Below the pieces are notes generated by a model. The model was given only the letters and a program-made list of their open reading frames with translations, was not told the DNA's origin and did no database searches. Below are positions 9,979-28,578 of a stretch of 32,497 bases of DNA, in pieces. Origin of the DNA: Catajapyx aquilonaris (taxonomy: Eukaryota); contig JYFJ02004409.1 of assembly GCA_000934665.2 (NCBI GenBank), forward strand, positions 1-32,497, read 5' to 3'. Position numbers and translations under genes: made by a program. Within the stretch, counting starts at the first letter, position 1. Each line of letters starts with the position of its first letter.

Positions 9979-12900
9979 CTGAAACGTAATGTGCGCATTG
10001 ATTTAAAATGTTAAACAGGGTGGCCGAAAAGTCCCGCATCAATGGGACTTGTAAGAAGCAGTGTCCAGAAGGTAGACTGTGTAAGAGTAATTGAGAAATT
10101 TCACACTTGTTTCAAAGTTGACCAGTTTTATTTGGTCTCAACACATATTTTCCTCAACTAGGAGGGTAAGAAGTACTTCTTACAGGCGTATATGAAGAAC
10201 CCGGGAGAAAACGATCAAGGTCCATCTCAGGTAAAACTGAGATATTCCCATTTTAAATTTCGAAGGTACATAATTATTAAGGTTCTATTGTAAATCCCAC
10301 TTTCGGGGCCTTCCATAGTGACCTATGATCATTACTCCAAAACCACGACCAAACCATCATATTCTGCGCTGGTGAAACTATATTCTGAGATATGTAACTC
10401 ATTTTTGAGAAAAAGTGGACCTTGATCGTGTTTCTCCCGAGGTCTTGATATAGAGTACGAAATATTTCCATGGGTAAAAGCTAAAATAATTATATTTTCA
10501 GTGTGGTTCACACGAATGCCAGAACATAAAAGTAGGAGTGTTTTTATGTTCCTCATAATGTCCGGCGAAATGGTGCGGTACTCTGCAGCAATAGCTCAAG
10601 CTGAGGGTGATATTCTTTAAATTCACAGCGTACACTTTGGATTTCAGAACATGAAAACACGCCTATAATATATTATGGTTTGACATTAGGGAGAACTACA
10701 TGTAAAAGAACTTGTATAGTTTTCACCCACATAGTTATTTATTGTTGTTTTTACCTATTGATGCGGGACTTTTCGGCCACCCTGTATTTTGCAATGTGAC
10801 TCGCTGAATGCATTATTGAGGGGAAGGAGAATTTTTATTCTTACCATTGTTGGGAATGAACTTGGCCGCCCAGACAACCTTGGCAAGAGTTAAGGTTTCG
10901 CACAATTCTCTGTCGGATTCTGTCAATCCATTGAAGAAATCGACTGCTGCCTGTGCTGCTTCCTGAATCATGGGATCTGTTGTTGGTACCTCATTCCAAG
11001 ATAAACAAGAACACCAGTGAGGTTCTATCCTGGCATCCCCGCATGTCCTCGCCTTGGGTATCTGAGAAGGGTGAGTGATTATGGGAATTCCATGGTTACC
11101 TTCATTTTGACATTTTTAGTGACGCCAATACACTGCTTCCTGAATACAGGGCGTACAGTGAACTATACAGTAGCTTCTGAGCTACCTTCTGAAACAAGTT
11201 GATTGACCTATTCTTCAGATCTGCAGGCATATCATAGGTGAAATGCAGAATGTTTCTTAGTGTTGCATGCACGTCAAACGGAGTTGTCAGCACATTCGAA
11301 TTTTCTCTGGAAGTAAAGGTTTTCAGGTCAGTTGAGGGCTTTAGGCGATCAGCGGTTATGATATACATAATTTGCTTTCCTTCGGTGGAAGAGAACATAG
11401 CAATTATTAAAGTTAAAGGAGCAATTTGAACTAACATGAAGTTGTTGTAGGCTTTAGGGTATGCTGTGCTGAACCACGGAGGAAAAATATAGCTGAACAT
11501 TGGATTCCTCTCTTCTTGTTTCCCTTGTAGGGTCTCTCTTATACTGGTGAACCTAAAATATGCATAGTCCGTATTACAAGAATCCTTGGTGGTGCGGTGC
11601 GATTGGCACCACTTGCCGGCGGCGGGGAGGAGGGAGGCGGGGGAGAGGGAGAGATAGTTGAGTGTGAGCAGCTGAGTAGGGCGGACGCTTGGTGTGTCGT
11701 CTGCCCTGAGGTGAGCTGTAACGAATGCTCTAATCCTACCTGGATCATTAAAGCAAAGCGTAACGAAGCAGTCTGTGTTCTGATTATGTAATCGGCATGG
11801 AAGGTAACCTTCAAGGTCACATCCGTTTAAATTGGCTGCTGGAGTAAGCTATCTATAAAATCTACAGTTCTACACTATGAATGTGTCGGAGACGATTTAC
11901 CTTTTCTACAAGTCCCTAAAATAATTTTCATAAAGATAGACGTAAAAAAAACGAAATTCGAGTTCTTCCGGCCAACTGTTAGTCTCATTTAATTATGAAA
12001 TAGCATTAAAATATACTGAATATCTACCTTGAGAACCGTGCCAGACAAATTTGCTGAAATTGTGGTACTTTGCGAGAATTAAATAATGAATACTTTATAA
12101 TTGATATTAAGGAGGTTGGCCCAGCATTGCCTTTCAACCTCCAAGGATAGAGAAGGAAGGAAGCGGCTGTGGCCTATTATACGGAAGCGACCCCGGAATT
12201 ATCCTTGAAAGACCGTGGAAAACCACAGAAAATCACGTTCAGGGTTGCCGGCCCCGGGATTCGAACCTAGGGCCTCCCGATTAGCAGTCGGACACCCTAT
12301 CCACTATGCCAACCTGCTTCGGTAAATAATGAATAATGAATACTGTGAGAACGGCATTTATCCTCTTTTGGAAATTGTCCCTGTCCTTGTGCGTCATCTG
12401 GTGGCTGAAATACTGTATATAAGGAGCGATGCTGCTGAGCTCCGCCCTCTTACTCTTATGCTCCTCTCCTGCTTGGCAGTAACCTCAGAGCAATAGACGT
12501 GCTGTTGTTATCACCAGTCCGAGTATCATTTACTGAACCCAGTATTTGGACCCATGAGCTAGCCAGGTGTACGGTACCGAAGTACGGTACGGGTAGGACC
12601 TGACAATACTTATCTGCGGCTTGCCTCTGTCACATCTGAAAACACCCAAACTCATTTCATTCTCGCGAAATACGACGATTTCAGAAAATTCGTCTGACAC
12701 GATTCTCAAGTTAGATATTCCGCATGCTGTAACATATTTCATAATTAATAGTTCGAATGCATCCCGGAGGCCGGCGGTGCTGACCTTGGTTTTCTGTGGT
12801 TTCCCAAGGTCGCCCAGGAAAAATTTCCGGGATCGTACCGTAAAATAGGCCACAGCCGCTTCCTTCCTTTCCCTGTACTGGAGGAGGTGCGGTGTCAGTC

Positions 12901-13096
12901 GGGTATTTCTGACCCGCATCTAGGGGGTCATCTATGGCGAACGGGCCCCCTGAGGGACTGCACACGACCCCCACCTTGATGACATTGCACATGCACCAGT
13001 GTCCCCCCCCCCTCTCTATCCCTACCCTGTCCCCTGCACGATAGTGGTAATCCACTCCCCTAAGAGAGCCCATGGCTCTAGCACGGGGTATATCTA

Positions 13097-13166
<70 letters not shown>

Positions 13167-16100
13167 GTCCGGATGCTAAAGGTTTTAACTTTGCATTTTG
13201 TGATAAAAGCATGAAACTCGGTACACTCATTCCTTGGACACTTCTGAGAATATCTGGTCGCAGGCTCACAATAGGTGACCCTGCCGGGGGTCACTTCACA
13301 GGGTTGCCATATCTATCAGGTGAGGGGGAGGTGTGGTGGCCGTGATGGTAACGTCACGGCTTGCTGAGTGAAAGGCCCCAGGTTCGATCCCCGCCTGGGG
13401 AACTTTCCTTTCACCTGCGTCGGGAGGGTCTCTGATCTGCACCAAGGAGGTGTCTGGCAACCTAACCTCCTGGGGGACTGCACATGGCCCAAAAGCCATA
13501 GGACAATGCACCTGCACAAGTGTCCCCTCCCCAACAATCCCTTTCCCTACCCTATATCCTAGCATTCCTTGCACGGAGATTGAAGTTAATAGAAAAACTG
13601 TATGGTGGTCTGCCACCCCCCGAAAGGCCCATAGAGGGCCATCAAGGGGTACGAAAAATAAAAATAAAAATATATCTATCAGGTGCAACATACCTTTAGG
13701 ACTTTGTATTCAGTGATAAAAACATGAAACTCACAGTCAGTAGTCTCAGTACACTAGTTCTTTTGACACTTCTGAGTGAGCCTATTTGGACTTGGGGCTA
13801 CGCTGGGTGACACCACTGGAGCACTGGAGGTCACTTTCGCGGAGTTGCCAAATCCAACAGGCTGTGCAACATGCATTTATATTTGAATACTGAGCTTGAA
13901 TTCGGGGACAAAGACTTGAAACTCGCCACGATTAGTTTTCGGACACTTTTGAACATATCTGGACGGGCGGGGGCCACGATCACCGACCTTGCTGAAAATC
14001 ACTTTCGCAGGGTTATCATATAACAAACTGTGAAACATATCCCCCTATAATAATAGCCTTATTTTTTCGCCTCCGGAACTCTTCAGATGATGTGGCGGCC
14101 TGAACAATATTAGTGCCGTGACCAAAAGGTGGCAGCACTCCCTTGGCGGCCTTTGGCGCCTATTTCCTTTCCCGCCAATACAGGCCCCTGGCGAGTGCTG
14201 CCAACTTCTCATCACGGGACTAAATCATCAGGCCGGGGGGAGTAGTGGCTGGGGTCGCCTGCCTTACCGCCAATTTCCTTTCCCGCCTAAACTCCTGACT
14301 GCCAATTTCCTTCCGAAAGTCCTTCCCGCCAATTCCATATACCGCCAAAAGTCCTAACCGCCGCCTATTTCCTTTCCCTCCAATACAAGTCTGCCAACTG
14401 ATTCAATCTCAGCCTCAGAATATTCAGAAAGCTGTCATATAAGCTGCTACTTTCAGCCCCACTTTCTAACTATTCCGTCATCTTGGATCCGGATCTAGAT
14501 ACTTATTATGATTTTCAGAGGATAGCTTAGCGCTTGCGACTTATTTGGCGGCGTCGCATGAACCCCCCGGAGCAAGCAAACAAGATATCAGCGGTGGGAT
14601 CAGCAGGGGATTGGACGTTGGCAAAGCCACAATAACGTTCGTTGGCCTCCGCCGCCACAAGACGTACAGTACTGTAAATGTTGCGGATACAAAACCCACA
14701 ATAATCTCTCAGCTCCGCTTCCGCTCCGCATATTACCTAAAAATATCCTGCAGGGCGACGAACCCTGCCTGGCGGGGTCCAACAGATGACAGTGGAGATA
14801 ATGGATAACCCGTGATAAGCCTCCTTGAGCTTTTTAGGGGATCATTTTTTAATTGATCGACTTTAATCATTGCCTGCGCTGTGATGGATTTTTATTGTGG
14901 GAGGAAACGGGAGAACCCCCGAGAAAACCCACGCGAACACGGAGAGAACACATCGAAACTATATTCACATAAGCATATATACTCTGTCCGATCCGGGGAT
15001 CGAACTCGGGACCTTAGGGTGGAAGGCTGCGGCGCTAACCACTCCGCCACCGTGTCGCCCAATAACAGATGATAGTATTGTTGCGGTACCATAAAGCCAT
15101 ACAGCATCACCTACACAAAGGGTAACTGCATCCCTCATGTTGCCGCGTCACTCAAATATGCCCATATCAGCTATTATCAGCTATTATTATTAGCCTTAAT
15201 CATAGCCTGCTGGATCCGGATCCAAAAGTCTTATAATTATAATTATGTTCATTGTATTGTAGGGACGATAGTCCCTATAAGTAAGATCCTCGTGCATAAA
15301 CAACAATGAAAATTTTCCTTGTTCTTGCTGTTCTTGTTGGGAGGACGATTTTCTGTCAAGCATATCTCAAAAACCGTTGCAAGTACAGCCTTCATATTTT
15401 GAACACGTATCCGGCCCGACGGGCTGCAGTGCCCGATCCCCTACACAAAAAACCCAAGGACGTAATAGAACCCCGAAATAAAATTATAAGTGAATAATTC
15501 ATTATGAGCAGCAATGCGTGCAACTGGAATCCATGTGTGACAACAGTCACACATTATTTAGAATATTATTTTGTGTAAATATCATCTCTACACTTTATGC
15601 GGAATTGCGTACGCTAACTGCTTGAATAAATATATGCCTTACCTTATTTTCATTACATTATTATTAAATAAACATTTCATTCATTCAACTTGTTATTATA
15701 TTTCATTCAGTTTCCACGGTATCCTCCTTAGGTCAACAGTTGAGTGACTCGATTATGACTGTAGTTGTTGCCAACCATCAAATATTATTGAATTTGTCTT
15801 AGATACGATAACTCTAGGCGTATTCGGCAATTCAGGAATCTGACTTCCTGGGCTGTTTGGATATTCGGCAAATCAGGTGCCACGCCCCCTGAAGTAAGTG
15901 CGCATGCGCCCTACCTGACTTCCCAAGCTCAGGAACTTAGTGTACTCCTGACCTGACTTACTTGCTGAGAAACAGGCGGACAACAAATTATTGTTATGGA
16001 TGCAGCAGTGTTGCCAATGCAAAATGCCCCAAAACCCCGCGAGAGGACCTGAAAATACCCGATTTTACCCGCATTTTAATTTTACCCGCACCATTACCCG

Positions 16101-19100
16101 CAAGCGTCCGAAATGCGGCACCGAAATACCCGAACATTGGCATATCACTGGGATGCAGCACAGGCGGGTAGGGGGGGGTCTCTCAGTTCGGCCGTTCGGC
16201 AATAATATTCTGAGGGGCAGGGCTAACAGTTCAGATATCACGTGAATAATCTGAATTGCCGAATACGCCTTCTATCATGTTCGTATGAATTCCATTCGAT
16301 CTTCGTGTCATCAGTCCTCCTGCACCCTTCAACTACTTAAACTAACTAAACTGAAACTATCTTGATTTTGGTAAGTTAATGCATTTATAATTAACGCAGG
16401 CTTCGTAAACCCCTGCCAGCGGTTCGTCCTTGCCGGTATACGTAGCCCAACCAGTTAGACTTTGGTGTTGCCCCCTTTCTCCTCCCGCTGATTCGAACGG
16501 CAACCACTTACCACATAGGCATACGACGCCCGTATGATATATGACTTTAGTGTTATTCTCACTCCCAATAACCGACTTTCTTCCCTTTCTCTTACCATCA
16601 TGTACCAGGATGATGAGAGAGGCCATGATCTTATTTCTTGTCCTTGCAATACTAGAGTAGTATTTTGAGGAGACTTGTGTCCACATGGGAAAGTGATTGA
16701 GTGGGCATGGGTATAGGACCCGAACAACGCGACCACCTCCACGTGGTGGGTCCTGGGTACAGCCTGGTAGCGAATAATCACTTCTAACCACCTTATACTG
16801 TACATTTGAGAACTTAGACAGATGTCATGAAGAAGGGACTTGTGATAATGAAATTTGGTCGGAAAGAAATTAACCAAGCAACCAACTATAAGCAGCCATC
16901 TTTCACAAGATAAAACTAATCAGAAATCATCTCTCTCCTCTCAACTGTGTACGAACCTTAACCCCTTCCAAAAAAATCTTTCCAAAGCCCAAGAGGTAAG
17001 GATCCACTCCTCTCTCTGTACCAGGCCAATTCCCACCACGCTTTTTCTAGGTTCAGAACTTATATGACAAAAGTCGTTGAGACTCTCAACACTTCCTGAC
17101 AATCCTGCCTGCCACCTCAACATCTCCATAAACTCTATCTCCACTCTCCTCTCAACTGTGTACGAACCTTAATAAAACCGACCAAGAAAATCTTCTCCCC
17201 GCCCAAGATGTAAGTATCCGCTCCTCTCTCTATACCAGAGCGGTTTCCCAAACTGTGCTCCGCGGAGCACTTGGTGCTCCACGAAGCTTCTCCAAGTGCT
17301 CCACGAAGGTGGGGAGAAAAGGAATTCTTCAATAAGCTATATACCCATTTAAATCTCTCAGTAGCTGCCGTGACCTTGAACCCAAATTTTTTTCGCCTGC
17401 GGCGCCCTTTTGTCCATCGCCTTCCCATTTACTAATTTGGCGCCCCCCCCCCCCTCAGAATTTTTTATGCTGACGCCGTCGATGACGTTAGTGCTCCGTC
17501 ACAAATATCTCTGCTGAAAAGTGCTCTGCGACTCAAAAAGTTTGGGAACCTCTGCTCTATACCATCCTATGAGTATAACTGCATGTTCAGGGGGAGGTGT
17601 GGTGGTCGTGATGGTAACGTCACGGCTTGGTGAGTGAAAGGCCCCAGGTTCGATCCCCGCCTGGGGAACTTTCCTTTCACCTGCGTCGGGAGGGTCTCTG
17701 ACCTGCACCAAGGAGGTGTCTGGCAACCTAACCTCCTGGGGGACAGCACATGACCCATGTTGTAGACAATGCACTTGCACCCCATGTTTCCTCCCCAAAA
17801 ATCCCTACCCCTACCCTACATCCTTGACTCCTTGCACCGGTGACTGAAGAAAAAAATGACAGAGAAAACTGATGGTGGTGTGCCACCCCCCAAATAGGCC
17901 ATTGATGCCTGGCACGGGGTAAATTTAAAAAAAAAAAACTGCATGTTGAGATTGCTTTGTCAAAAAAGGAAAGTAAGATCCAAGTAACGGATAGAAATTA
18001 CTGAAACAAGACTGGGCTGCGTAAGATCTTCAACCTTATGGATAAATGTAACCCAGAGATCTTACTTCCGCATTTTACACAACAATAATTAGATTTGTAT
18101 CATGGTGATGATCAAAGCGTCTTTGTTCATCAAGGTATAGTTGTGCAATTTGGGATTATTTAATGCTTATAATAATAATATAATATAATAATAAAAAATA
18201 ATAATATGGTAATAAGAATGAACGATAAAAATAAAAAAATTATTAATTGGTTCATCAATTAGCTGAGTGGCTGGAAGGTTAAATGGTTCACATTATAATA
18301 ATTCACATATAATAATATAATATAATCTATACTATAATATAATATGTAATATAATATATAATATGTAATATGTAAACTAGTCGTCGCTGGCTACCCCAAG
18401 TCTGGGATTAAGCCGTGATGTAATGTACGTATGTATGTATATGTAATATAATATATAATATGTAATATAATATGTAATATGTAATATAATATGTAATATA
18501 ATATGTAATATGTAATATAATATAATATATAATATAATATATAATACAATATAATATATTTAATAAGGATAAAGGATAAATATAATCCTTGAATTAATTA
18601 ATTTGTTCATCGATTTACTGAATAGCTTGAACGTTTAATGGTCCACAGATTGGCTTATTAGCATTAGGATGGCTGATGGACAAAGACGCCATGATACAAA
18701 TCTAATTATTGTGTAAAATGCGGATGTAAGATCTCTGGGTTACATTTATCCATATAAGGTTGAAGATCTTACGCAGCCCAGTCTTGTTTCAGTCATTTCT
18801 ATCCGTTACTTGGATCTTACTTTCCTTTTTTTGCAATTCCGTAGGGAATTAGTTTTTGTGATAATTGACATAATGTCATCCCAGCCTATGCCATGACGAT
18901 CAACAATAACTCGCCCGGCCAGATCAGCACGTTTGCATTTCCCTGGATGAACCTGTCTTCTCCCAATCATGGCCAGCTGTATGTGGCACTGTCCCGGTCT
19001 CGCAACCCAATCCAGGTCAAAGTGTTCACTACTCCTACTGCTCCACACGGAACATTGCTCTCCAACAGCAGAGTGTTTACACAAAATGTTGTGTATCGCG

Positions 19101-20653
19101 AGGTATTGTGAAAAGTTTCCTCATGTCCGATTCAGGACGTGTAGCTATAGTATGTCCATTGATTCAATACCACTCAATTTTTCAACCCAGTATTACGACC
19201 AGCTATGGGTAGGAAGATTTTGCGCAGGGGGAGCCGCCTAGCGGCGGTCGTTGAAAGTTTTTCTATGAAAGTAACTTTGCCTTGCAATGGAGGTAGGCGT
19301 GCAGCAAGTCTCACAGTCCTTGCGGAAAATTTCTAACAGGAATTGTTGCGTGGTTGGGTGCCACAACACATACGGCCGATGTCCTCCTGGAACAAGGTTC
19401 TACTCATTCCCGGGAAACCCCTGGCAGAAGGAGCAGCGGGAGAGGTGGATAAGGGCTGTAAAGCGAGAGAGGCGAGTTCTTTCTGTTTTTGATGCATGTT
19501 TTTTCCTATGCAGGCGAGGTAGTAAGTTGTTGTTCATTTCTCTGTTAAACAGTTCTGACCGTAGCAACTGGACACCAGCGAAGTTTTCTGTGATATGCAG
19601 CACCTACTTCGTTGGTGGTCAAAAGTCAACCTGTCCTAACCATATAGCCTTCGTACCTACAATTTTTCCTGGGACGTATCAGTGCCGACCTCCAACCAGC
19701 GCAGCACAAAGAAGGGCATTGCGCCGAAGTAGCACACATCATGCGGATGTGCCGGCCATGCAAGTAGATGATGATCCAGTTAGGGAGACGGAGTGGCGCC
19801 GCGGTAACGCGCGCGCCCACGGAAGTTAAGGTCCCGGGGTTCCCACCTTCTTTCGTGCAGAGTTGGGCCATCTCTGGCTTCGTTTCGGGTGGGAATTTCC
19901 GCTAGACTAACCCACCCGGGGGAGTTCATAAAATGACCAATATGCGACAATTGCACTTGCACTTTGCACATACCCTCCTAATTACCCTTGGAGCAATTAA
20001 ATAATATCATATTATACGGTTCCAAAAATAGTGATATTACACTCCCCTAAAGAGGGCCCAAGGCCTGATAATGGGGTAGTACAGTAAAAAAATGCAATGA
20101 TCTCAGTAATGAGGCTGCCCAGACATGATGACTCCTCTACATGACATGATCCTCTGGTGACATTTAAGCCACGGATACAGGTCTGACTGGTCGATTCAGT
20201 GACACCCTGTACTTGTATAAGCGGTAGTCAGCGATGAAGGAGACGCAAGATATCCCCACACCATATGCACTGAAACAAAAGTAATGACGGAAAAAATATG
20301 GGGGGGGGGGGGGGATCATNCATAACTTCAATCCTGTAGAGGGTAGCACTGTGAGGTTTTGAACATAAATGCCTTCCTACTGGGACTTTCGGCCCTTTGA
20401 AGAAGAAACCGGATTCCGAATAGTTATTAAGCAAAAATATAAAAACGTGTTTTTAGTGGTTTCCAATTTTTTTGAAGAGGAGTTTAGTTTAGCTGTAAAT
20501 GGTAGGAATGCACTTCACGACGGTGCGGATCTGTGTTCAAAATTTGGAAGCTCTACATGCAGCAGAACTTGAGTTAGGGCGAATAAAAAGACTCAAGAAG
20601 AAGAAGAAGAAGAAGAAGAAGAAGAAGAAGAAGAAGAAGAAGAAGAAGAAGAA

Positions 20654-20712
<59 letters not shown>

Positions 20713-23700
20713 CGAGGAGGAGGAGCAGGAGGTAGCTAAAGAGGAAAATGCTAACGGTGCCCTTTCTAAGCCTCACCTGGCTCCGTGATCACTCATTATT
20801 ATGAGAATCGTGTCATTCAGCATATTTCCTTTGTGTAATCCCTGGACCATTTCCAAAAGGTCTTCATCCGCAGCCTCCACCAAATTGAGGTCATCGTGGG
20901 ACAGCTCTCCGTGAAATGCGAATATGAATTTTGGCTTGTCGCGGTAATGTTGAAAGAAATTTCTTAAGTAATTCATGAATACCTGTGAATGAACAAGTGT
21001 ATCACGATGACTATTTTACCATGTCGACAATGCACTAGACATGCAACCCTCATAACTATCTAGTAATGCGGAACATGTCAATCTTTCCAATTCTTTGATG
21101 AACTCCTATCACCTTGTGGCTCGGTGTGTTCCTGAGGCAATAATTCTTATTCGACTCCCGGTTCTTGTCATATTCCAAAAAAAATGGTCGCATGAAATGA
21201 TCCGTGGGAACTTGATCGAAGCCTTTTAATCTGTATGTGAATGTTCCAACTGAAGCGGTATCTTCTATGAATGCTGAAATTCAAATTATTGCATGCATTG
21301 GAATCCATAATTTATATTCAATAATATTAGTGGGATCCAGCAAGTGAAAATATGCCATGTTTGCTGTTGTCAAGTTTGTAATAATGTTCGTTCTTATCCT
21401 GATGCAAGAATAATTTTTGACTAATAAAAACACAGTATGACGTGGATGATAATTATTATATAGCCTATACTGTATATAAATAAATAAATAAATAAATTTA
21501 CTGAATCTGCTATTTTTGAGCTGTAGATAAGAAATTTAGGCACAAGATTACTATACTTTTTATCTGAATACTGTAGCTTACCTGTTACGTAACCATTGTT
21601 TTTATACTCGTCCCATACCCAAGGATATACATTGACGAAAGTAGCTTCGTCTCCCATGCTCTTCCGAGTTTCAGGCAACTCTGTCTCCTGCAGGCCTAAA
21701 TGAAAAGTGTCAGAGTGACTTACAGGGGTTGGACAAAATAAAAGGAACACCTGCAAAAAACGGTTGAAACTTCGCGTCTGTTTTATTAGAAAACTATAAC
21801 CTCCTGAGACCCCTGGTACAGTATATTATACCTTTGTTTTTTCCAGCACCTTCTGACTAACTCAAACGCGTAAAAAAAACAAAAACAAACGTGATTGAAA
21901 GGTGTAGTAGGGGTCTCAGGAAGATAAAAGTAACAAAGATGACTTTTATCAGGTTTGAAGCTCTGTCGATCTACCTAGGTACATTTGTCGAGATATGCAG
22001 ATGACGCACAGATCAGGAGAGGGGGAGAGAAACAAAAAACGAACGACACTCCCACCCCAGACCCAATTTTTGAGTGAAATGTTCTAGGCTTGTCATTGGA
22101 AACCCGAAACAGTTATGGACATGAAATTCACTGGGTTTTGAATCTCTATCGATGTCACTATGTGAAGTATACGGATGGACCGAACCGGTGCAAATTGGAT
22201 CCCGCTAGGTGGAAATAGACACGTGAAAAACAGACCCGACAGAGATATGCCCCCTGTGCAATTTGAACCTATTAGATGATTGGTATCACACGATATATGA
22301 ATGCCCAATGGGGGGAGGTGTGGTGGCCGTGATGGTAACGTCACGGCTTGCTGTGTGAAAGGCCCCAGGTTCGATCACCGCCTGGGGAACTTTCCTTTCA
22401 CCTGCGTCGGGAGGGTCTCTGACCTGCACCAAGGAGGTGTCTGGCAACCACATGACCCCTTTACAGATCTTGCACTTGCACCTATGTTCCCTCCCCAAAA
22501 ATCCCTATCCCTACCCTACATCCTTGTCTCCTTGCACCGGTGATGAAGTTAAAAAGGAAAATTGGAGAGTAATGGTGGTATTCCACCCCCCTAAAAAGGC
22601 TAAGCCTTATCACGGGGTAACGTAAAATAAATGAATGCCCAATGTTCGCGGGAGGAAGAAATTCCTACTTGGAAAACTTTCCCCGGGTCCCCAGGAGTGG
22701 CGGTTTGGTTTCGTTAGTCAATAACCCCCCCATAGCCATTATCAAAAATCTTTTTTATTATTTAGTGTATGTGGCCAAGTGGCACTCGAATATGTGAACA
22801 ATTGTAAAATGTACAGTCTGGTGGGGGGGTGGAGGAGAAGATGTGTAATGTAATAGGGTTCCATTATTTTATGTAAATATGTATAATACCACAGAGTGAA
22901 GTCCCCCCTGTATAGAGACAGGGGGAAAATAAATATGAATATGAATATACGGATGGACCAGTAATAATCATTCAAGCAGGCAGGAGAAAAAAAGAAACTA
23001 CAGCTGGCCATAATTTCGAGAAGACAGGTTCATCCAGGGAAATGCTAACGTGCTCATCTGGCCCTGCGAGTTATTGTTGATCGTCATGGCATGGGCTGGG
23101 GTGACATTATGTCAATCAAAATATAAGACTTTTGGATCCGGATCCAGCAGGCTATGATTAAGGCTAATAATAATAGCTGATAATAGCTGATATGGGCATA
23201 TTTGAGTGACGCGGCAACATGAGGGATGAAGTTGCCCTTTGCGTAGGTGATGCTGTATGGCTTTACGGTACCGCAACAATACTATCACCTGTTAAGGCCG
23301 TTTACACGACCACTTTCCTAGCGTTTGTACTTTGCGCAACTTTCCTAACGCAAGTCCCTACCCTCCACACGGCCACTTTGCTAACGTTCGTACCGGTTCG
23401 TACTTATGGAAGTGGGCCGGCAGTAGCCAAGCTGCTGGGCCGTTAGCAGTGTTTAGAACCAAAGCGGCTTTCTTCCGGCCTAGCTGAATATGCACCGGAT
23501 ATTACACCACTATTACACCTCCTGCCCCTTCACTGTCGTCGTCGTTGTCGTGCTAGGCAACACGGAGGTGGAGGGTGCACGACGGTGCACGATATATCCG
23601 CAAAGGGACAGGAGTTTGGCAAACTCCGCAAGTGCTCGGGTGCGACCATGCTGCCATCTAGGAGGGTTTACGTACCAGCCGTTCCTAATTTTACGTAGAT

Positions 23701-26700
23701 ATGGGATGTAGGCGATCCGAAAGTACAAACGTAGGAAAGTAGGGCCGTTAGCCAAGTAGGAGCTGGGTGCGTTCTGATTGGCTCTCCGTCCCTACTTTAC
23801 GTAGGAAAGTCGTCGTGTAAACGGGCCTTTATTGGGCGACACGGTGGCGGAGTGGTTATAGCGCCGCAGCCTTCCACCTCTAAGGTCCCGAGTTCGATCC
23901 CCGGATAGGACAGAGTATTTACGCTTATGTGGATATAGTTTCGATGTGTTCTCTCCGTGTTCGCGTGGGTTTTCTCGGGGGTTCTCCCGTTTCCTCCCAC
24001 AATAAAAATCCATCACAGCGCAGGCAATGATTAAAGTCGGTCAATTAAAAGATGGTCCCCTAAAAAGCTCAAGGAGGCTTATCACGAGGTATCCATTATC
24101 TCCACTGTCATCTGTTGGGCCCCGCCAGGCAGGGTTCGTCGCCCTGCAGGATATTTTTAGGTAATATGCGGAGCGGAAGCGAAGCTGAGATATTATTGTG
24201 GGTTTCGTATCCGCAACATTTGCAGTACTGTCCGTCTTGTGGCGGCGGAGGCCAAGGAACGTTATTGTGGCTTTGCCTACGTCCAATCCCCCCTGCTGAT
24301 CACACCGCTAATATCTTGTTTGCTTGCTCCGGGAGGTTCATGCGACGCCGCCAAATAAGTCGCAAGGGTTTACTCTAAGCTAAGCTATCCGCTGAAAATC
24401 ATAATAAGTATAGCTAGATCCGGATCCATAGTTCGAAAGTGGGGCTGAAAGTAGCAGCTTATATGACAGCTTTCTGAATATTGTGAGGCTCAGATTGAAT
24501 CAGTTGGCAGACCTGTATAGGTGGTATCGGCGTGACGTCACCGGCTCTTGGCATGACGTCACCAGCGGGCGGCGGCCATATTGTAGAAATAAGAGTGTTA
24601 CCTGCCCATTGCCTACAAAGTGCCGTAGCTTGCTAACGCGAATATTTGAGCGGATTGTAGGCATTTCACACTGCGGATATGGTTTTTTGTACGATTGTGG
24701 GTTGCTCTGAGAGGTACGGGAGGGACCGGACAGATAAGGTTGCATTATGGCCTGCCTACAGTAATAAATAAATCAGTGCGATCGGACGAAGGAGCTGTCA
24801 AGCGAAAGGAGAGCCCTTTGGCTTTCTCGTATTCATCGTGCTGATATGCCGAGGAAACCATTATAATTATATTAACATATTATGTTAACATAAGGTATTA
24901 TTATATTAACATATTATATTAACATAAGGTATTATTATATTAACATATTATATTAACATAAGGTATTATTATATTAACATAAGGTATTATTATATTAACA
25001 TATTATATTATTATATTAACATATTATATTAACATAAGGTATTATTATATTAACATATTATATTAACATATTATATTAACATATTATATTAACATAAGGT
25101 ATTATTATATTAACATATTATATTAACATAAGGTATTATTATATTAACATATTATATTAACATAAGGTATTATTATATTAACATATTATATATTATATCA
25201 TATAATATATTATATATGATATATATTATATGATATAATACATATTATATGATATGATATATATGATATGATATGATATATATTATATGATATGATATAT
25301 ATTATATGATATAATATTATATAGCCTATTATACCATATAATATATATTATACTATATAATATTATATATTATACAGTATATCCAGGATCCAGGATATAT
25401 ATCCGTGCCAATGAATGTGGCGGGATAATCGGAAAACACTGATGATAATAATCTTAAAATATATTGTCTTAGCTACCGTGAAAATGAGCAATTCGCAGGT
25501 TTTAAATGAACTTCCGGACGTATGCATGCTGATTTAAATAACTTAATATTAATTTAATCGAAATAATAAAACTTACCGTATATTTTTAGTTATTCTTCTA
25601 AAAAAAGCATGCTAAATTTCCTTTCCTGCGAGACGGACGTTTTTTCGGACTTTAATTTCTGACTTCTTATTTTTTGTCGATGCACGAATAATCCGCACCC
25701 GGATAATCGGGAGTGTAGTTCTTTTGCAAGAGCATTTCTCATCATTTCAAATATTATATAAATATAGTAAGTTAATGGTATGAGTTGTTACCAACGTCAT
25801 TAAGGATGCAATTCGTGCGAAACCTGAAATTTTGCTAAATTATTTAATTGTGCGAATTCCTTGCGGTTTAGCGACACATGCATGTCTACACAAAGGTTTC
25901 AGAATAATGATAGATTGCGAACAAAACTAAAGGCATTAAAATCGGACGATTAGGAGCTGAGTTACGGTCATTTGAAGAAACCGGTGGCGGACATCTTGAA
26001 TGGTAATTATTTTGTTGACCTACACCGAATTTGAAGTGCCTCCCGGTTTTAAAAGCTCTGGTATGACCTCATCTATGATCCCTGAAAGTGGCATATTCCA
26101 GTCAAAAGGTGCAGCCTTTTTATTGTACCAGACGTACTATTAACTCCTACTCGGAATAATTTTCTATTTCTACAAGATGGCCGCCGCTCGCATTAGTTCG
26201 AGAAAATACCCAGAGATGGCTCTCTCGCCGATACCACCTATTGGCGGGTAAGGAAATAGGTGGCGGTTAGGACTTTTGGCGGGAAGGGAAAGTGGCGGCC
26301 ATATGAATTCGTGCCGTGACCAAAAGGTGGCACAGCACTCACCAAGCTTGGTGAGTGCTGTGCCACCTTTTGGTCACGGCACGAATTCATTAGGCCGCCA
26401 GGGGAGTGCTGCCACCTTTTGGTCACGGCACTAATTCTTCAGGCCACCACATCTGGAGCGTTTCAGAGGCGAAAAAATAAGGCTATTATTATAGGGGATA
26501 TATAATTATTCTTTAAAGCAGTGCGCAGGGGAGGGCGGGTGTCGTTTCCCTTCTCCGCCCTCTCGCGTGATTATTGGTCCATCTCTATAAGTCAATAGTT
26601 TCAAAACCCAGTTCATATCCATANGGGGGGGGGGTGTCGTTTGTCTTTTGTTTCTCTCCCCCCTCGTGATTTTTGCGTCATCTGCATATCTTGACAAATC

Positions 26701-28178
26701 GACAGAGCTTCAAAACTTTTGCAGGTGATTCTATTATTTTGTCTAACCCCTGTATATTGTACAGAAACTACAATGACACTAGGCTACTATAATTATATTA
26801 CAAAGGGCCAAGAACATGATTAAAATCACCACTCCCGTTCTGCCACCATTAATAAGTAAATGATAAATATTATAAATAGTAACGAAAGGTGATGTCGTTT
26901 GTGTCTTATGAATATCGGAGCATATTTTTGTGGTAATTATTATTTTTTCAAAGATTTTAACCACCAAACTTTCTTTAAAGACATACTGTTCGAGTGCTAT
27001 ATTATTATTGTCGTCAGTGACCGATACAGTGTATGAAAAACCCACCAGTGAGAATAGGGATGAGGGCCTGTGGAGTTCCGTCTCCAACAATGTTGTATCC
27101 CTTCATGACAATGGCATTCAGCTTCTCCATCATGTATTTGTATGTCTTTGGGAGCTTCCGAATGAAATGGACTCTGGATATAGAGTCGAATCCGAACATG
27201 AGGACATTCAACTTCAGTCCGTCTTCAGGAACTTTGCTCCAGTTGCTTCTTTTGGCGATGCCTGCGTCTTTGCGTATACCTGCCATGATGTTTTTCCATC
27301 TGGAAATAGATGAAAAGCAGAAAGATCTGAGAAATGAAAAAGAAGGTGCCGGTTACGTCAAATAGTGCAGCCTTAGTGCTGCTTTTTCACTTAATCGCAT
27401 CATAGACGAGGCTTGTATCTGCAAAAGGTCACCAAGAACCCGTTTCAACAATACTGATAAAAAGAGAGCAGCACCATAACGTATGTTTTATGGTCATAAT
27501 AATTGTAAAATTTTACGTTAACTACCGGTAAGGTACTTTTAGGCTTACTCCTGTTTGGAAGATTCTGATGCGCATTTCACTGCAACAAAATCACTCTGGA
27601 TCAGCTCATAAGCTGTTTTTGTGCTTGTTACTTCGCTCATCTCGTTGTCAAACTCATTCGTTCTGATCACGTCTGTGAAAAACAAAAATAAATAGACAAT
27701 ATAATTCGTGCCTCTATAGGGGAGTCATTTAACACTACCGAGATATCCGGAACATTTCCTGAACATGGTCATTAATGATAGTTGTTGTCAATAACACCCC
27801 TTCTCTTATAATATTATTGTTATTATTACAGATATGAATTTGATGCACGGTTTAGAATTCCCAGCTTAAGACGAGAGCACATTATACATCGTGCGTAATT
27901 ATTAGTTTGGGTGAAGCATTGGAAGGTCGTTAAACGGCAAAAAATAAATTGCAGTTAGCTCTCAACCGGCAGTTGAAAAGTGCCGTTTAAACCTGCGCAT
28001 AGCACCTGAGAAGTTGCATTCAATTGTTCCGTATTTTTCCACGGAACGTTTCGATATCTTGGCAGTACCACCGTTGATCTCAACCCATTCTGGCTCTCCA
28101 TCGCAAACCAATGAGGAAACGTGGCTGAAGTGTTTTTCCAGTTTCTTGGGGTGCATTGGCAATTCTGGCAGAATGCAT
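9707..28178 (-). CDS. DUF229-family protein, paralog 2, 5'-partial (about 585 aa in window)
   Basis: complement(join) of 28178-28006, 27672-27549, 27299-27046, 21695-21582, 21273-21113, 20982-20777, 11552-11436, 11306-11186, 11061-10845, 9978-9707. All introns are GT-AG and phase-compatible, giving one open frame. Motifs: GFDSISR, GYNIVGDGTPQAL, PTDHFMRP, ELSHD, MSDHGARF, EERNP, LTTPFDVHATL, RTCGDARIEPHWCSC, SRVNKYGSQAAC, RKYCYCK. Start exon not located. Confidence 0.9.
10016..10784. mobile_element. Tc1/mariner-like MITE in the last intron of gene 2
   Basis: Perfect 28-bp TIR CAGGGTGGCCGAAAAGTCCCGCATCAAT; TA on the right, AA on the left. Confidence 0.85.
10845..11061 (-). CDS. DUF229 paralog 2 exon
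   Basis: IPKARTCGDARIEPHWCSC...KFIPNN; donor GTAAGA. Confidence 0.9.
11186..11306 (-). CDS. DUF229 paralog 2 exon
   Basis: ENSNVLTTPFDVHATL...RSINLFQK; AG/GT boundaries. Confidence 0.88.
11436..11552 (-). CDS. DUF229 paralog 2 exon
   Basis: FTSIRETLQGKQEERNPMFSYIFPPWF...; donor GTTAGT. Confidence 0.88.
12093..12323 (-). mobile_element. tRNA-derived SINE (family with GGCCACAGCCGCTTCCTTCC core)
   Basis: Minus-strand A box TGGCATAGTGG and B box GGTTCGAATCCC; TSD AAATAATGAATA (12081-12092, 12324-12335). Confidence 0.85.
12344..12605 (+). mobile_element. Solo LTR (Gypsy-like)
   Basis: TGTGAG...CTGACA termini; 4-bp TSD ATAC; internal TATATAAGG and a degenerate poly(A) signal AATAGA. Confidence 0.65.
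12751..13166 (+). mobile_element. 5'-truncated tRNA-derived SINE (family S2) with (TAA)n tail
   Basis: Begins at a B-box remnant GTTCGAAT. Shares the TTTTCTGTGGTTT and GGCCACAGCCGCTTCCTTCC core with the SINE at 12093, and shares its 3' module with S1/S3. Confidence 0.75.
13098..13166. repeat. (TAA)n microsatellite
   Basis: About 23 perfect units forming the SINE tail. Confidence 0.95.
13200..14039. repeat. Three degenerate tandem units of about 170-200 bp, interrupted by SINE S1a
   Basis: Recurrent TGAAACTC...GACACTT...TCACTT...GTTGCCA...TGCAACAT blocks at about 13210, 13725 and 13917. Confidence 0.6.
13323..13671 (+). mobile_element. tRNA-derived SINE family S1, copy a
   Basis: A box TGGCCGTGATGG, B box GGTTCGATCCCC, A-rich tail; 14-bp TSD ATATCTATCAGGTG. 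Confidence 0.9.
14794..15063 (-). mobile_element. tRNA-derived SINE family S4, copy a (V-/Meta-SINE-like core)
   Basis: A box TGGCGGAGTGG, B box GAGTTCGATCCCC; core GTGTTCGCGTGGGTTTTCTCGGGGGTTCTCCCGTTTCCTCCCAC; 13-bp TSD AACAGATGA(C/T)AGT. Confidence 0.85.
15816..16270. mobile_element. PIF/Harbinger-like MITE
   Basis: Perfect 20-bp TIR AGGCGTATTCGGCAATTCAG; 3-bp TSD TCT. Confidence 0.82.
16006..16150. mobile_element. hAT MITE nested in the previous element
   Basis: Termini CAGTGTTGCCAATG / CATTGGCATATCACTG; perfect 8-bp TSD GGATGCAG. Confidence 0.85.
16715..16781 (+). ncRNA. Candidate HDV/CPEB3-like self-cleaving ribozyme (P2 degenerate)
   Basis: P1 AGGACCC/GGGTCCT, P3 ACC/GGT, L3 TCCACGT, P1.1 CC/GG, P4 TAC/GTA, J4/2 G-CGAA, all in the canonical order; P2 pairs poorly. 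Confidence 0.55.
17236..17554. mobile_element. hAT (Buster/Charlie-like) MITE
   Basis: Termini CAGAG..TTCCCAAAC / GTTTGGGAACCTCTG; perfect 8-bp TSD CTCTATAC. Confidence 0.85.
17588..17936 (+). mobile_element. tRNA-derived SINE family S1, copy b
   Basis: Head nearly identical to S1a; poly(A) tail; 11-bp TSD AACTGCATGTT. Confidence 0.9.
17961..18833. mobile_element. Foldback-type MITE with about 170-bp TIRs and an AT-rich microsatellite core
   Basis: 17961-18131 is the reverse complement of 18675-18833 with few differences; the centre is TAATA/TAATATG repeats. TSD not clear. Confidence 0.8.
18887..19111 (+). pseudogene. Helitron RepHel PIF1-like helicase C-terminal remnant
   Basis: YAMTINNNSPGQ...HGQLYVALSRSR...TQNVVYREVL-stop matches the motifs AMTINKSQGQ, HGQLYVALSR and terminal NVVY.EVL of Helitron helicases. 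Confidence 0.85.
19287..19780 (+). pseudogene. THAP-domain gene fragment of a DNA transposon
   Basis: CCVVGC...FYSFP...RERWIRAV...W.P...VICSTYF...FVPTIF. The zinc-binding His is replaced by Tyr. Probable 81-nt intron 19472-19552. Interrupted by SINE S3a. Confidence 0.85.
19783..20092 (+). mobile_element. tRNA-derived SINE family S3, copy a (B box deleted)
   Basis: Homologous to 28578-28246; lacks the TTCGATCCCCACCCGGG segment that lies between two CCCGGG repeats in S3b. Confidence 0.82.
20596..20731. repeat. Compound (AAG)n(ATG)n(AGG)n microsatellite
   Basis: About 20 AAG units then about 19 ATG units, ending about 45 nt from a gene 2 splice donor. Confidence 0.95.
20777..20982 (-). CDS. 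DUF229 paralog 2 exon
   Basis: VFMNYL...FHGELSHDD...IIMSDHGA; donor GTGAGG. Confidence 0.92.
21113..21273 (-). CDS. DUF229 paralog 2 exon
   Basis: FIEDTASVGTFTYRLKGFDQVPTDHFMRPFF...NYCLRNTPSHK; AG/GT boundaries. Confidence 0.9.
21582..21695 (-). CDS. DUF229 paralog 2 exon
   Basis: LQETELPETRK...YPWVWDEYKNNGYVT; donor GTAAGC. Confidence 0.9.
21800..21923. mobile_element. piggyBac-like MITE with ATAA target duplication
   Basis: TIR CCTCCTGAGACCCCT / AGGGGTCTCAGGAAG; ATAA on both sides. Confidence 0.7.
22311..22630 (+). mobile_element. tRNA-derived SINE family S1, copy c
   Basis: Same head as S1a/b; 14-bp TSD ATGAATGCCCAATG. Confidence 0.9.
23295..23828. mobile_element. PIF/Harbinger MITE
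   Basis: TIR AGGCC(C)GTTTACACGAC.ACTTTCCTA; TTA TSD confirmed by the empty site in copy 1. Confidence 0.9.
23834..24103 (+). mobile_element. tRNA-derived SINE family S4, copy b
   Basis: Reverse-complement counterpart of 14794-15063 at the same site in the Helitron. Confidence 0.85.
24519..26239 (+). mobile_element. ISL2EU-like DNA transposon derivative with THAP remnant
   Basis: TIR AGGTGGTATCGGCG; AT duplication deduced from the empty site in copy 1; subterminal inverted GCGGCCAT.TTGTAGAAATA; frameshifted THAP start from 24679 (MVFCTIVGCS...LPTVI..NQCDRTKELSSERRALWLSRIHR). Confidence 0.75.
24861..25375. repeat. AT-rich minisatellite / low-complexity tract
   Basis: Interspersed 21-nt TAACATAAGGTATTATTATAT and 13-nt TAACATATTATAT units, then TGATA/TATAT repeats. 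Confidence 0.92.
26303..26390. repeat. Perfect 88-bp palindrome with no spacer
   Basis: 44-bp arms are exact reverse complements centred on AAG|CTT. Confidence 0.95.
27046..27299 (-). CDS. DUF229 paralog 2 exon
   Basis: WKNIMAGI...NVLMFGFDSISR...PQALIPILT; AG/GT boundaries. Confidence 0.92.
27549..27672 (-). CDS. DUF229 paralog 2 exon
   Basis: Acceptor ttttcacAG; VIRTNEFDNE...SDFVAVKCASES; donor GTAAGC. Confidence 0.85.
28006..28178 (-). CDS. DUF229 paralog 2, first exon found
   Basis: Acceptor ttttcAG; CILPELPMHP...ECNFS; donor GTGCT. Confidence 0.82.
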
Positions 28179-28245
28179 CTGAAAATAGTAGAAAAATTTA
28201 GTGACACTAACAGTAAATGTTGACATCTTCTATCTTCTATAATAT

Positions 28246-28578
28246 ATATTTTTTCTTGCATTGCCCCATTGGGAGTTACATCTCCTTTAGGGGGGTGGAA
28301 TACCACCATCTGGGTGGAACCGGTATACTAAGATAGTATTTAGTTTGTTCCAAGGGTAGGTAGGAGGGGATGTGCAAAGTGCAAGTGCAATGTCGTTGCT
28401 TGGTCATTTTGTGAACTCCCCCGGGTGGCTTAGTCTGTCAGAAAAATTGCCACCCGAAATGAAGCCAGAGATGGCCCAACTCTGCACGGATAAAGGTGGG
28501 AACCCCGGGTGGGGATCGAACCCGGGACCTTAATATCCGTGGGCGCGTAAGTTACCGCAGCGCCACTTCATCTCCCCT
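28246..28578 (-). mobile_element. tRNA-derived SINE family S3, copy b
   Basis: A box TGGCGCTGCGG, B box GGTTCGATCCCC; 15-bp TSD TATCTTCTATAATAT. Confidence 0.9.

Follow-up and report, generated by a model that had tools for sequence, protein, structure and literature searches.

A conserved stem-loop at the 3' ends of tRNA-derived SINEs in a contig of Catajapyx aquilonaris, probably a LINE recognition module

Why should short interspersed elements (SINEs) of different build end in one and the same folded tail? The question is raised by contig JYFJ02004409.1 of Catajapyx aquilonaris (assembly GCA_000934665.2), of which positions 1 to 32,497 of the forward strand, hereafter called the window, were analysed. 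By self-comparison and reading, we found tRNA-derived SINEs of four kinds in this stretch (families A, B, C and D), whose tails carry a small hairpin followed by a CCCC/GGGG helix with an inner stem of changing sequence. The tail holds a conserved stem-loop backed by compensatory changes, on a small sample of seven independent copies. As an answer to the question, we propose that this stretch of about 50 nucleotides (nt) is probably the 3' recognition module of the SINEs, most likely copied from, or held in common with, a partner long interspersed element (LINE) of the stringent type. That a LINE protein binds the module, and which LINE this would be, are points that we infer by analogy.

The tail module and its carriers

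The tail module is a specific and non-random feature of the window. A sequence-only reading of this DNA had listed eight tails with their inner stems; all eight were recovered at the positions given there, by reading and by a pattern search, and the stems had been listed correctly. From a MAFFT alignment of seven tails we built a covariance model and ran it unfiltered over both strands of the window; it returned exactly these eight at 38.4-67.1 bits, while the remaining 15 of 23 matches (E ≤ 10) scored 10.9 bits or less. The pattern CCCC-N-AA-N12-28-GGGG-N-A gave 7 matches at 6 sites compared to 0.32 expected from shuffles, 0 of 100 of which reached 7, and GTGGT-N3-CCACY-CCCC was matched 5 times compared to 0.00 expected. 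A looser regular expression had 11 matches in the window, eight of which are the claimed tails; 3497+, 30234- and 5107- were rejected as tails, being devoid of both the first hairpin (hairpin 1) and a SINE context.

The carriers of the module are SINEs, as seen from their head of the RNA polymerase III (pol III) type, their target-site duplications and their simple-repeat or A-rich end. They are listed here in order of position, together with their modules (bp, base pairs; z, z-score of folding; bits, score with the covariance model).

12096-12320, minus strand: relative of family C with a tRNA-Ser-like head, family-C head and body, another 3' end (8-bp hairpin) and a 13-nt target-site duplication
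12761-13162, plus strand: SINE copy C1 (family C), 5'-truncated with its start inside the B-box region, long (AAT)n tail, 14-nt target-site duplication with 2 mismatches
13041-13092, plus strand: C1 tail module with AGTGG/CCACT hairpin, CCCC/GGGG helix and 6-bp inner stem; z -3.15; 62.0 bits
13323-13671, plus strand: SINE copy A1 (family A), perfect 14-nt target-site duplication, (AAAAAT)-like tail
13602-13653, plus strand: A1 tail module, inner stem GGCCC/GGGCC; z -2.52; 62.9 bits
14804-14990, minus strand: second family-D copy, present via an inverted segmental duplication, module at 14804-14853 with closing run GGGT; 38.4 bits
17588-17938, plus strand: SINE copy A2 (family A), target-site duplication of 9-11 nt, poly(A) tail
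17872-17923, plus strand: A2 tail module, inner stem AGGC/GCCT plus one U-G pair; z -0.70; 60.6 bits
About 19782-20092, plus strand: SINE copy B1 (family B), deletion in the B-box region, imperfect target-site duplication, short poly(A) tail
20028-20080, plus strand: B1 tail module, hairpin 1 of only 4 bp with a 6-nt loop, inner stem GGGCC/GGCCU; z -1.64; 54.6 bits
22311-22630, plus strand: SINE copy A3 (family A), perfect target-site duplication of 13-14 nt
22572-22621, plus strand: A3 tail module, inner stem AAGGC/GCCTT; z -2.45; 67.1 bits
23841-24093, plus strand: family-D element with a tRNA-like head and a different body, module at 24044-24093 with closing run GAGG; 43.7 bits
28246-28578, minus strand: SINE copy B2 (family B), perfect 15-nt target-site duplication
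28260-28309, minus strand: B2 tail module, inner stem GGAG/CTCC; z -2.71; 51.9 bits

By alignment, the B-box-like GGTTCGATCCCC is present in A, B2 and D. Copy C1 itself has no head, and the head of family C was deduced from the relative at 12096-12320(-), which is tRNA-like according to both the Rfam tRNA model (30.5 bits) and ARAGORN, and from loose ends of reads. Four copies have perfect target-site duplications (14, 9-11, 13-14 and 15 nt), that of C1 is near-perfect and that of B1 imperfect, and A-rich tails are found in six of the eight copies.

How many insertions do the eight tails stand for? Those of family D, at 14840(-) and 24057(+), fall within an inverted duplication of 707 nt with 91.9% identity (14377-15065 versus 24524-23829), which is flanked by further duplicated blocks. 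Because both D copies sit in an inverted segmental duplication, we regard them as one D insertion that was copied later and therefore count seven independent insertions, so that the eight copies of the sequence-only reading hold as tails but not as separate events. The closing run of D is damaged in a different way in each copy, reading GAGG in one and GGGT in the other, so the ancestor of both probably had GGGG intact. As a whole, the inverted segmental duplication is large (14037-15238 versus 26501-23119), lies between tandem copies of a DUF229 gene and consists of several blocks with 89-97% identity, which include the family-D element and repeats next to it. The D body (23900-24020; 14870-14990(-)) contains a run like ...gtttcctcccaca... 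and may resemble the central domain of Deu / Nin-DC SINEs.

Is the module an RNA of a class that is already catalogued? None of the eight tails was matched by an Rfam family at the gathering score, and none at E ≤ 5 with lax filters, ribozymes included. Being compact, conserved and placed at an RNA 3' end, the fold could also belong to another class, namely a self-cleaving ribozyme (hammerhead, HDV-like) or a small regulatory RNA that travels with the SINE, but apart from the empty Rfam search no familiar conserved ribozyme core is visible in the sequences, and we give this explanation hardly any credit. The sequence-only reading had spoken of a possibly undescribed RNA motif, which is right only insofar as no Rfam family matches; the kind of structure, including its compensatory changes, is well described in the passages on SINE tails of two earlier studies (PMC4824008, PMC3472496).

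Pattern scans for relatives outside the window gave chance matches only, with 4 loci and 0 loci in viral contigs, 5 in metagenome contigs and 3 in prokaryote genomes. Read by eye, the nine viral and metagenome loci are unrelated, mostly GC-rich hairpins or coding DNA, and all twelve score 9.1-30.1 bits with the covariance model of the tail. The best-scoring of these pattern-chosen loci (L006) has neither an inner stem nor an A-rich tail and was rejected as a relative. Searching the full-text literature for four tail words gave no relevant match but single matches of 11-12 letters in five papers, among which the insect one was checked and is due to chance. None of the four words occurs in the 9 supplementary files searched of a paper on German cockroach SINEs, and its main-text passages on tails name no hairpin (PMC9191728).

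Pairing, conservation and age of the tail

In single-sequence folding, six of the eight tails adopt an identical minimum-energy architecture, in which a hairpin of 4-5 bp (loop of 4-6 nt) abuts the CCCC/GGGG helix; the latter encloses an internal loop of 4-6 nt per side, followed by an inner stem of 4-6 bp. The two D copies fold differently (z = +0.34 and -0.14). RNAalifold, applied to the MAFFT alignment of seven tails without any fitting to the structure, recovered the same three helices with 13 pairs, 6 of which show two-sided changes. The covarying 3' structure that the sequence-only reading ascribed to all copies is upheld as far as pairing is kept across differing inner stems, and the common minimum-energy fold is not seen in either copy of D. 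Its further claim of a change in hairpin 1 between AGTGG/CCACT and GGTGG/CCACC is real and separates C1 and B1 from the rest.

Pairing statistics were obtained on an alignment of all eight tails. There, 88.0% of the cells are paired, compared to 76.9 ± 2.3% in shuffles, and the covariation score is 0.367 compared to 0.212; neither value was reached by any of 500 shuffles. When partners were slid by 1-3 columns, the paired share amounted to only 35-57%. In the inner helix, four of five pairs show a two-sided change. We also folded the interior alone, i.e. the part enclosed by the C run and the closing G run (five of the cuts held one extra G), against dinucleotide shuffles. All seven independent interiors form a hairpin at the same place, with p = 0.0127, 0.0067, 0.2359 (A2), 0.1356 (B1), 0.0440, 0.0300 and 0.0643, which combine to p = 5e-5 by Fisher's method.

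The distribution of identity along the element tells more about the history of these stems. Between copies of family A, head and body are 79-88% identical, the A-rich linker before the module 42-62%, hairpin 1 plus CCCC 90-95% and the module interior 38-54%, while GGGGTA is kept in 6 of 6. Across families, the base of the fold and the two letters 3' of it (UA in 7 of 8) are conserved, and the apical loops differ in all seven independent copies. Since four of the target-site duplications are perfect, these insertions are young, and since they are young, the differences between interiors were mostly present already in the source genes, each variant being paired. That interiors on young insertions are divergent and yet paired is the best argument for selected pairing. 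The variation among tails is most readily attributed to active source genes that differ from one another, or to an exchange of tails via template switching, and not to decay after insertion.

But, could the stems also be paired without selection? They might be short GC-rich palindromes that arose by chance or descend from one ancestral palindrome, in which case the covariation would be an artefact of few related sequences. Six of the seven inner stems indeed vary on a GGC/GCC core, A2 and B1 taken singly are no better than shuffles (46 and 14 of 200 shuffles fold as well), and the number of pairs with two-sided changes (6) was matched by 40 of 500 shuffles. On the other hand, the stems are perfect despite the low interior identity within a family, B2 (GGAG/CTCC) and C1 (AGAGCC/GGCTCT) have no arm sequence in common with the others, all seven interiors pair at the same place, and pairing collapses in the slid-partner controls. 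We consider an origin without selection quite improbable.

Further observations, next to the behaviour of A2 and B1 and the count of two-sided changes, weigh against our reading of the tail. The alignment of eight had been fitted to the structure by the covariance model before the pairing statistics were run, and the number of further pair types (11) was matched by 392 of 500 shuffles. The sample comprises seven independent copies, in which those of one family are related, and controls by shuffling can be exceeded without any structure. In seven of the eight copies, the antisense strand folds equally well or better. Because the antisense strand folds as well, the folding energy is no proof of strand, and we take the folded strand from the orientation of the SINEs. 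Finally, both D copies lack 11 nt of hairpin 1 and have a broken closing G run, and in neither of them did we find an A-rich tail or a target-site duplication.

Combination of heads, bodies and tails

If different SINEs share a tail, did they acquire it or simply inherit it? The alignment revealed a central block common to A, B and C, which D does not have; A and C are 75% similar over 89 nt by BLAST (E = 2e-8). Judged from this common central domain, A, B and C form something like a SINE superfamily, and their tail may in part have been inherited along with it. The four families of the sequence-only reading are therefore seen as four kinds, of which A, B and C are not fully independent. The common domain also adds to the points against a tail taken from a LINE, as simple co-inheritance would account for the tail in these three families.

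Following this argumentation, the tail could be a domain of the SINEs themselves, passed down along with the central domain from a single ancestral SINE and kept for, as examples, transcript stability, 3' processing or export, without reliance on any LINE. It would suit this explanation that the central domain and the tail are both common to A, B and C and that no LINE was seen in the window. The body of family D, however, is different and still carries a derivative of the same tail module, and the body of family C also occurs with another tail, at 12096-12320(-), so that tail and body are separable and the tail is an exchangeable module. In addition, the module is found exactly at the position of a stringent LINE/SINE tail, 4-9 nt before the A-rich tail. 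We thus hold a SINE-own domain to be unlikely, although less so than pairing without selection, and retain a LINE-related module as our preferred reading. The other 3' end at 12096-12320(-) may be a tail of a second type, whose partner could be a different one.

Read contigs from four runs of one sample of the source organism, aligned to the window at 80% likeness, provide a further view on exchange; their depth figures are not copy numbers. A C1-like tail is joined to a family-A body at a depth of 46-94 in all four runs, and in three of the four it follows a short C-type body at a depth of 464-674; the shorter side of these joints spans only 21-22 letters. The joints weakly favour separable tails. 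Among the variants listed, the sole one within a tail is 13050 A>T, seen at roughly one quarter of the depth, which changes the loop of hairpin 1 into the one found in A3, B1 and B2. The head and body of family A (13323-13480) reach a summed word depth of up to about 7e5 compared to 3e3-2e4 on tails, again in read contigs and not as copy numbers. This contrast in depth suggests that numerous subfamilies have the 5' part in common and differ in their 3' part.

Apart from the SINEs, the window is eukaryotic DNA with tandem DUF229 genes according to a Pfam scan, and three other features were noted. At 16715-16783(+), a sub-threshold match to the hepatitis delta virus (HDV)-like ribozyme family RF02682 was obtained (28.8 bits, with the gathering score at 44; E = 0.06 when 15.7 kb and 0.0012 when 301 nt were searched), in whose alignment P1- and P3-like pairs are kept; no adjoining open reading frame (ORF) has a Pfam match. 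HDV-like ribozymes sit at the 5' ends of some retrotransposons without long terminal repeats. A near-perfect long hairpin at 26293-26399 matches many unrelated models of microRNA precursors on both strands, all below gathering score (up to 48.6 bits), and looks like a palindrome of the type of miniature inverted-repeat transposable elements rather than a microRNA gene. AT-rich blocks resembling tandem or satellite repeats, at 18176-18647 and 24862-25402, are related to each other in both orientations.

LINE recognition and comparison with known systems

What, then, might the module do? It is located 4-9 nt upstream of the A-rich or simple-repeat end, and the copies bear insertion marks of the LINE type, namely target-site duplications of 9-15 nt and, in C1 with its 14-nt duplication, 5' truncation. 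By analogy with known pairs, this combination of place and marks is the anatomy of stringent LINE/SINE 3' tails. We hypothesise that the pol III transcript would present a short hairpin next to the CCCC/GGGG helix, an A-rich internal loop with NAAA on its 5' side and about AUCAC on its 3' side, and an apical stem-loop that is free in sequence as long as pairing is kept. A LINE protein would bind this fold, and the A-rich or simple-repeat tail, which lies a few bases further 3', would serve to prime reverse transcription at the nicked target. Priming of the LINE type would then result in target-site duplications of 9-15 nt and in occasional 5' truncation.

Two negative results belong on the opposite side. 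Pfam searches with 121 translations of ORFs in the window (15 ORFs of at least 110 amino acids, and 106 of the 110 ORFs of at least 75 amino acids, the remaining 4 being part of the first set) yielded neither a reverse transcriptase nor an endonuclease. The unfiltered run of the covariance model over both strands detected no ninth tail in the window, for instance on a fragment of a LINE.

One may go further and ask why the apical stem differs between source genes. We can picture a diversification that preserves structure, in which each source gene has its own stem on an invariant base, either as a code that splits the SINEs among LINE subfamilies or as an escape from silencing by small RNAs; a specific base with a free apex would reverse the L2 model. 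We rate this role as a long shot. If the link to a LINE is true, a well-defined 3' recognition module would be available for arthropods. Its covariance model could be used to annotate SINE families together with the partner LINE, and it could explain how many bodies and heads are moved by one machinery. Besides, the module lends itself to a test of whether recognition depends on the conserved base of the fold and not on the apical loop. The accepted view of SINE/LINE parasitism is left unchanged: this would be a clear but ordinary case of the well-known sharing of tails between SINEs and LINEs, with a module that itself is in no Rfam family.

The closest published parallels come from molluscs and plants. 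In bivalves, the tail of the LINE CR1-14_CGi is common to BivaV-SINE2 and BivaCORE-SINE1 and contains conserved stem-loops with compensatory mutations (Nishihara et al. 2016, PMC4824008); these SINEs are described as modular, with common central domains and exchangeable tails that are ascribed to template switching (PMC4824008). As in the passages on that system, several SINE families in our window combine one structured tail with modular bodies. In bivalves the LINE is named and aligned; in the window the phylum is another one and the tails are A-rich, and the two cases are likened by description only. For a monocot L1 lineage (LINE1-1_ZM) and SINEs of maize and sorghum, a common 3' end of about 50 nt with a variable, compensating stem, conserved flanks and poly(A) was reported (Ohshima 2012, PMC3472496; Ohshima 2013, PMC3747384), and an A-rich tail does not imply relaxed recognition (PMC3472496). 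The stem that varies with compensation, the preserved flanks and the A-rich end are all found in our tails as well. The monocot structure, as those passages present it, is a single hairpin with a conserved UCU loop and 3' flank in a plant host, whereas here two helices and a separate small hairpin occur and the apical loop is variable.

Tails of the L2 clade end in short tandem repeats other than A, not in A-rich tracts. Our tails end in (A)n, (AAAAAT)n or (AAT)n, and their apical loops differ in 7 of 7 independent copies, which does not correspond to the UnaL2 type. In the eel element UnaL2, which is paired with UnaSINE1, an internal loop in the tail stem is needed for mobilisation (Nomura et al. 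2006, PMC1636434). ORF2 of zebrafish ZfL2 binds the stem-loop of its tail in two parts, where specificity comes from the loop, whereas recognition of the stem is general (Hayashi et al. 2014, PMC4176376). Our tails differ from the ZfL2 model, as the apical loop and the inner stem vary and the base, i.e. hairpin 1, the C4/G4 helix and the internal loop, is conserved.

Among LINEs of insects, SART1 of Bombyx mori (R1 clade) is target-specific and telomeric, and to our knowledge has no SINE partner. It shows stringent recognition of its 3' untranslated region, yet has a poly(A) end (PMC3472496). With this account in mind, an insect LINE can be stringent and end in poly(A), while nothing ties our module to the R1 clade. 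In the CR1 clade, the tail consists of a hairpin followed by a short microsatellite; a hairpin is present here too, with A-rich repeats that differ between copies, a comparison made with the general description of the clade only. Tails of the I clade (I factor, MosquI) end in repeats of the (TAA)n type or in A-rich repeats. Set against this description, likewise a general one, one of our six tailed copies has a long (AAT)n and five have A-rich tracts. Gecko, a tRNA SINE, reportedly has a tail that alternates between poly(dA) and tandem repeats. The tails in the window vary in a similar way, between (A)n, (AAAAAT)n and (AAT)n, a likeness of description only. Gecko with MosquI / I-74_AAe (I clade, Aedes aegypti) is the only pair under the heading 'Protostomes' in the table passage of PMC3747384, and the list of 58 pairs in PMC3472496 may hold more arthropod pairs. 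Compared to the published tails as these passages describe them, the module of Catajapyx is distinct in three respects: its small hairpin abuts the main helix, its base is conserved under a free apex, and its A-rich ends vary from copy to copy.

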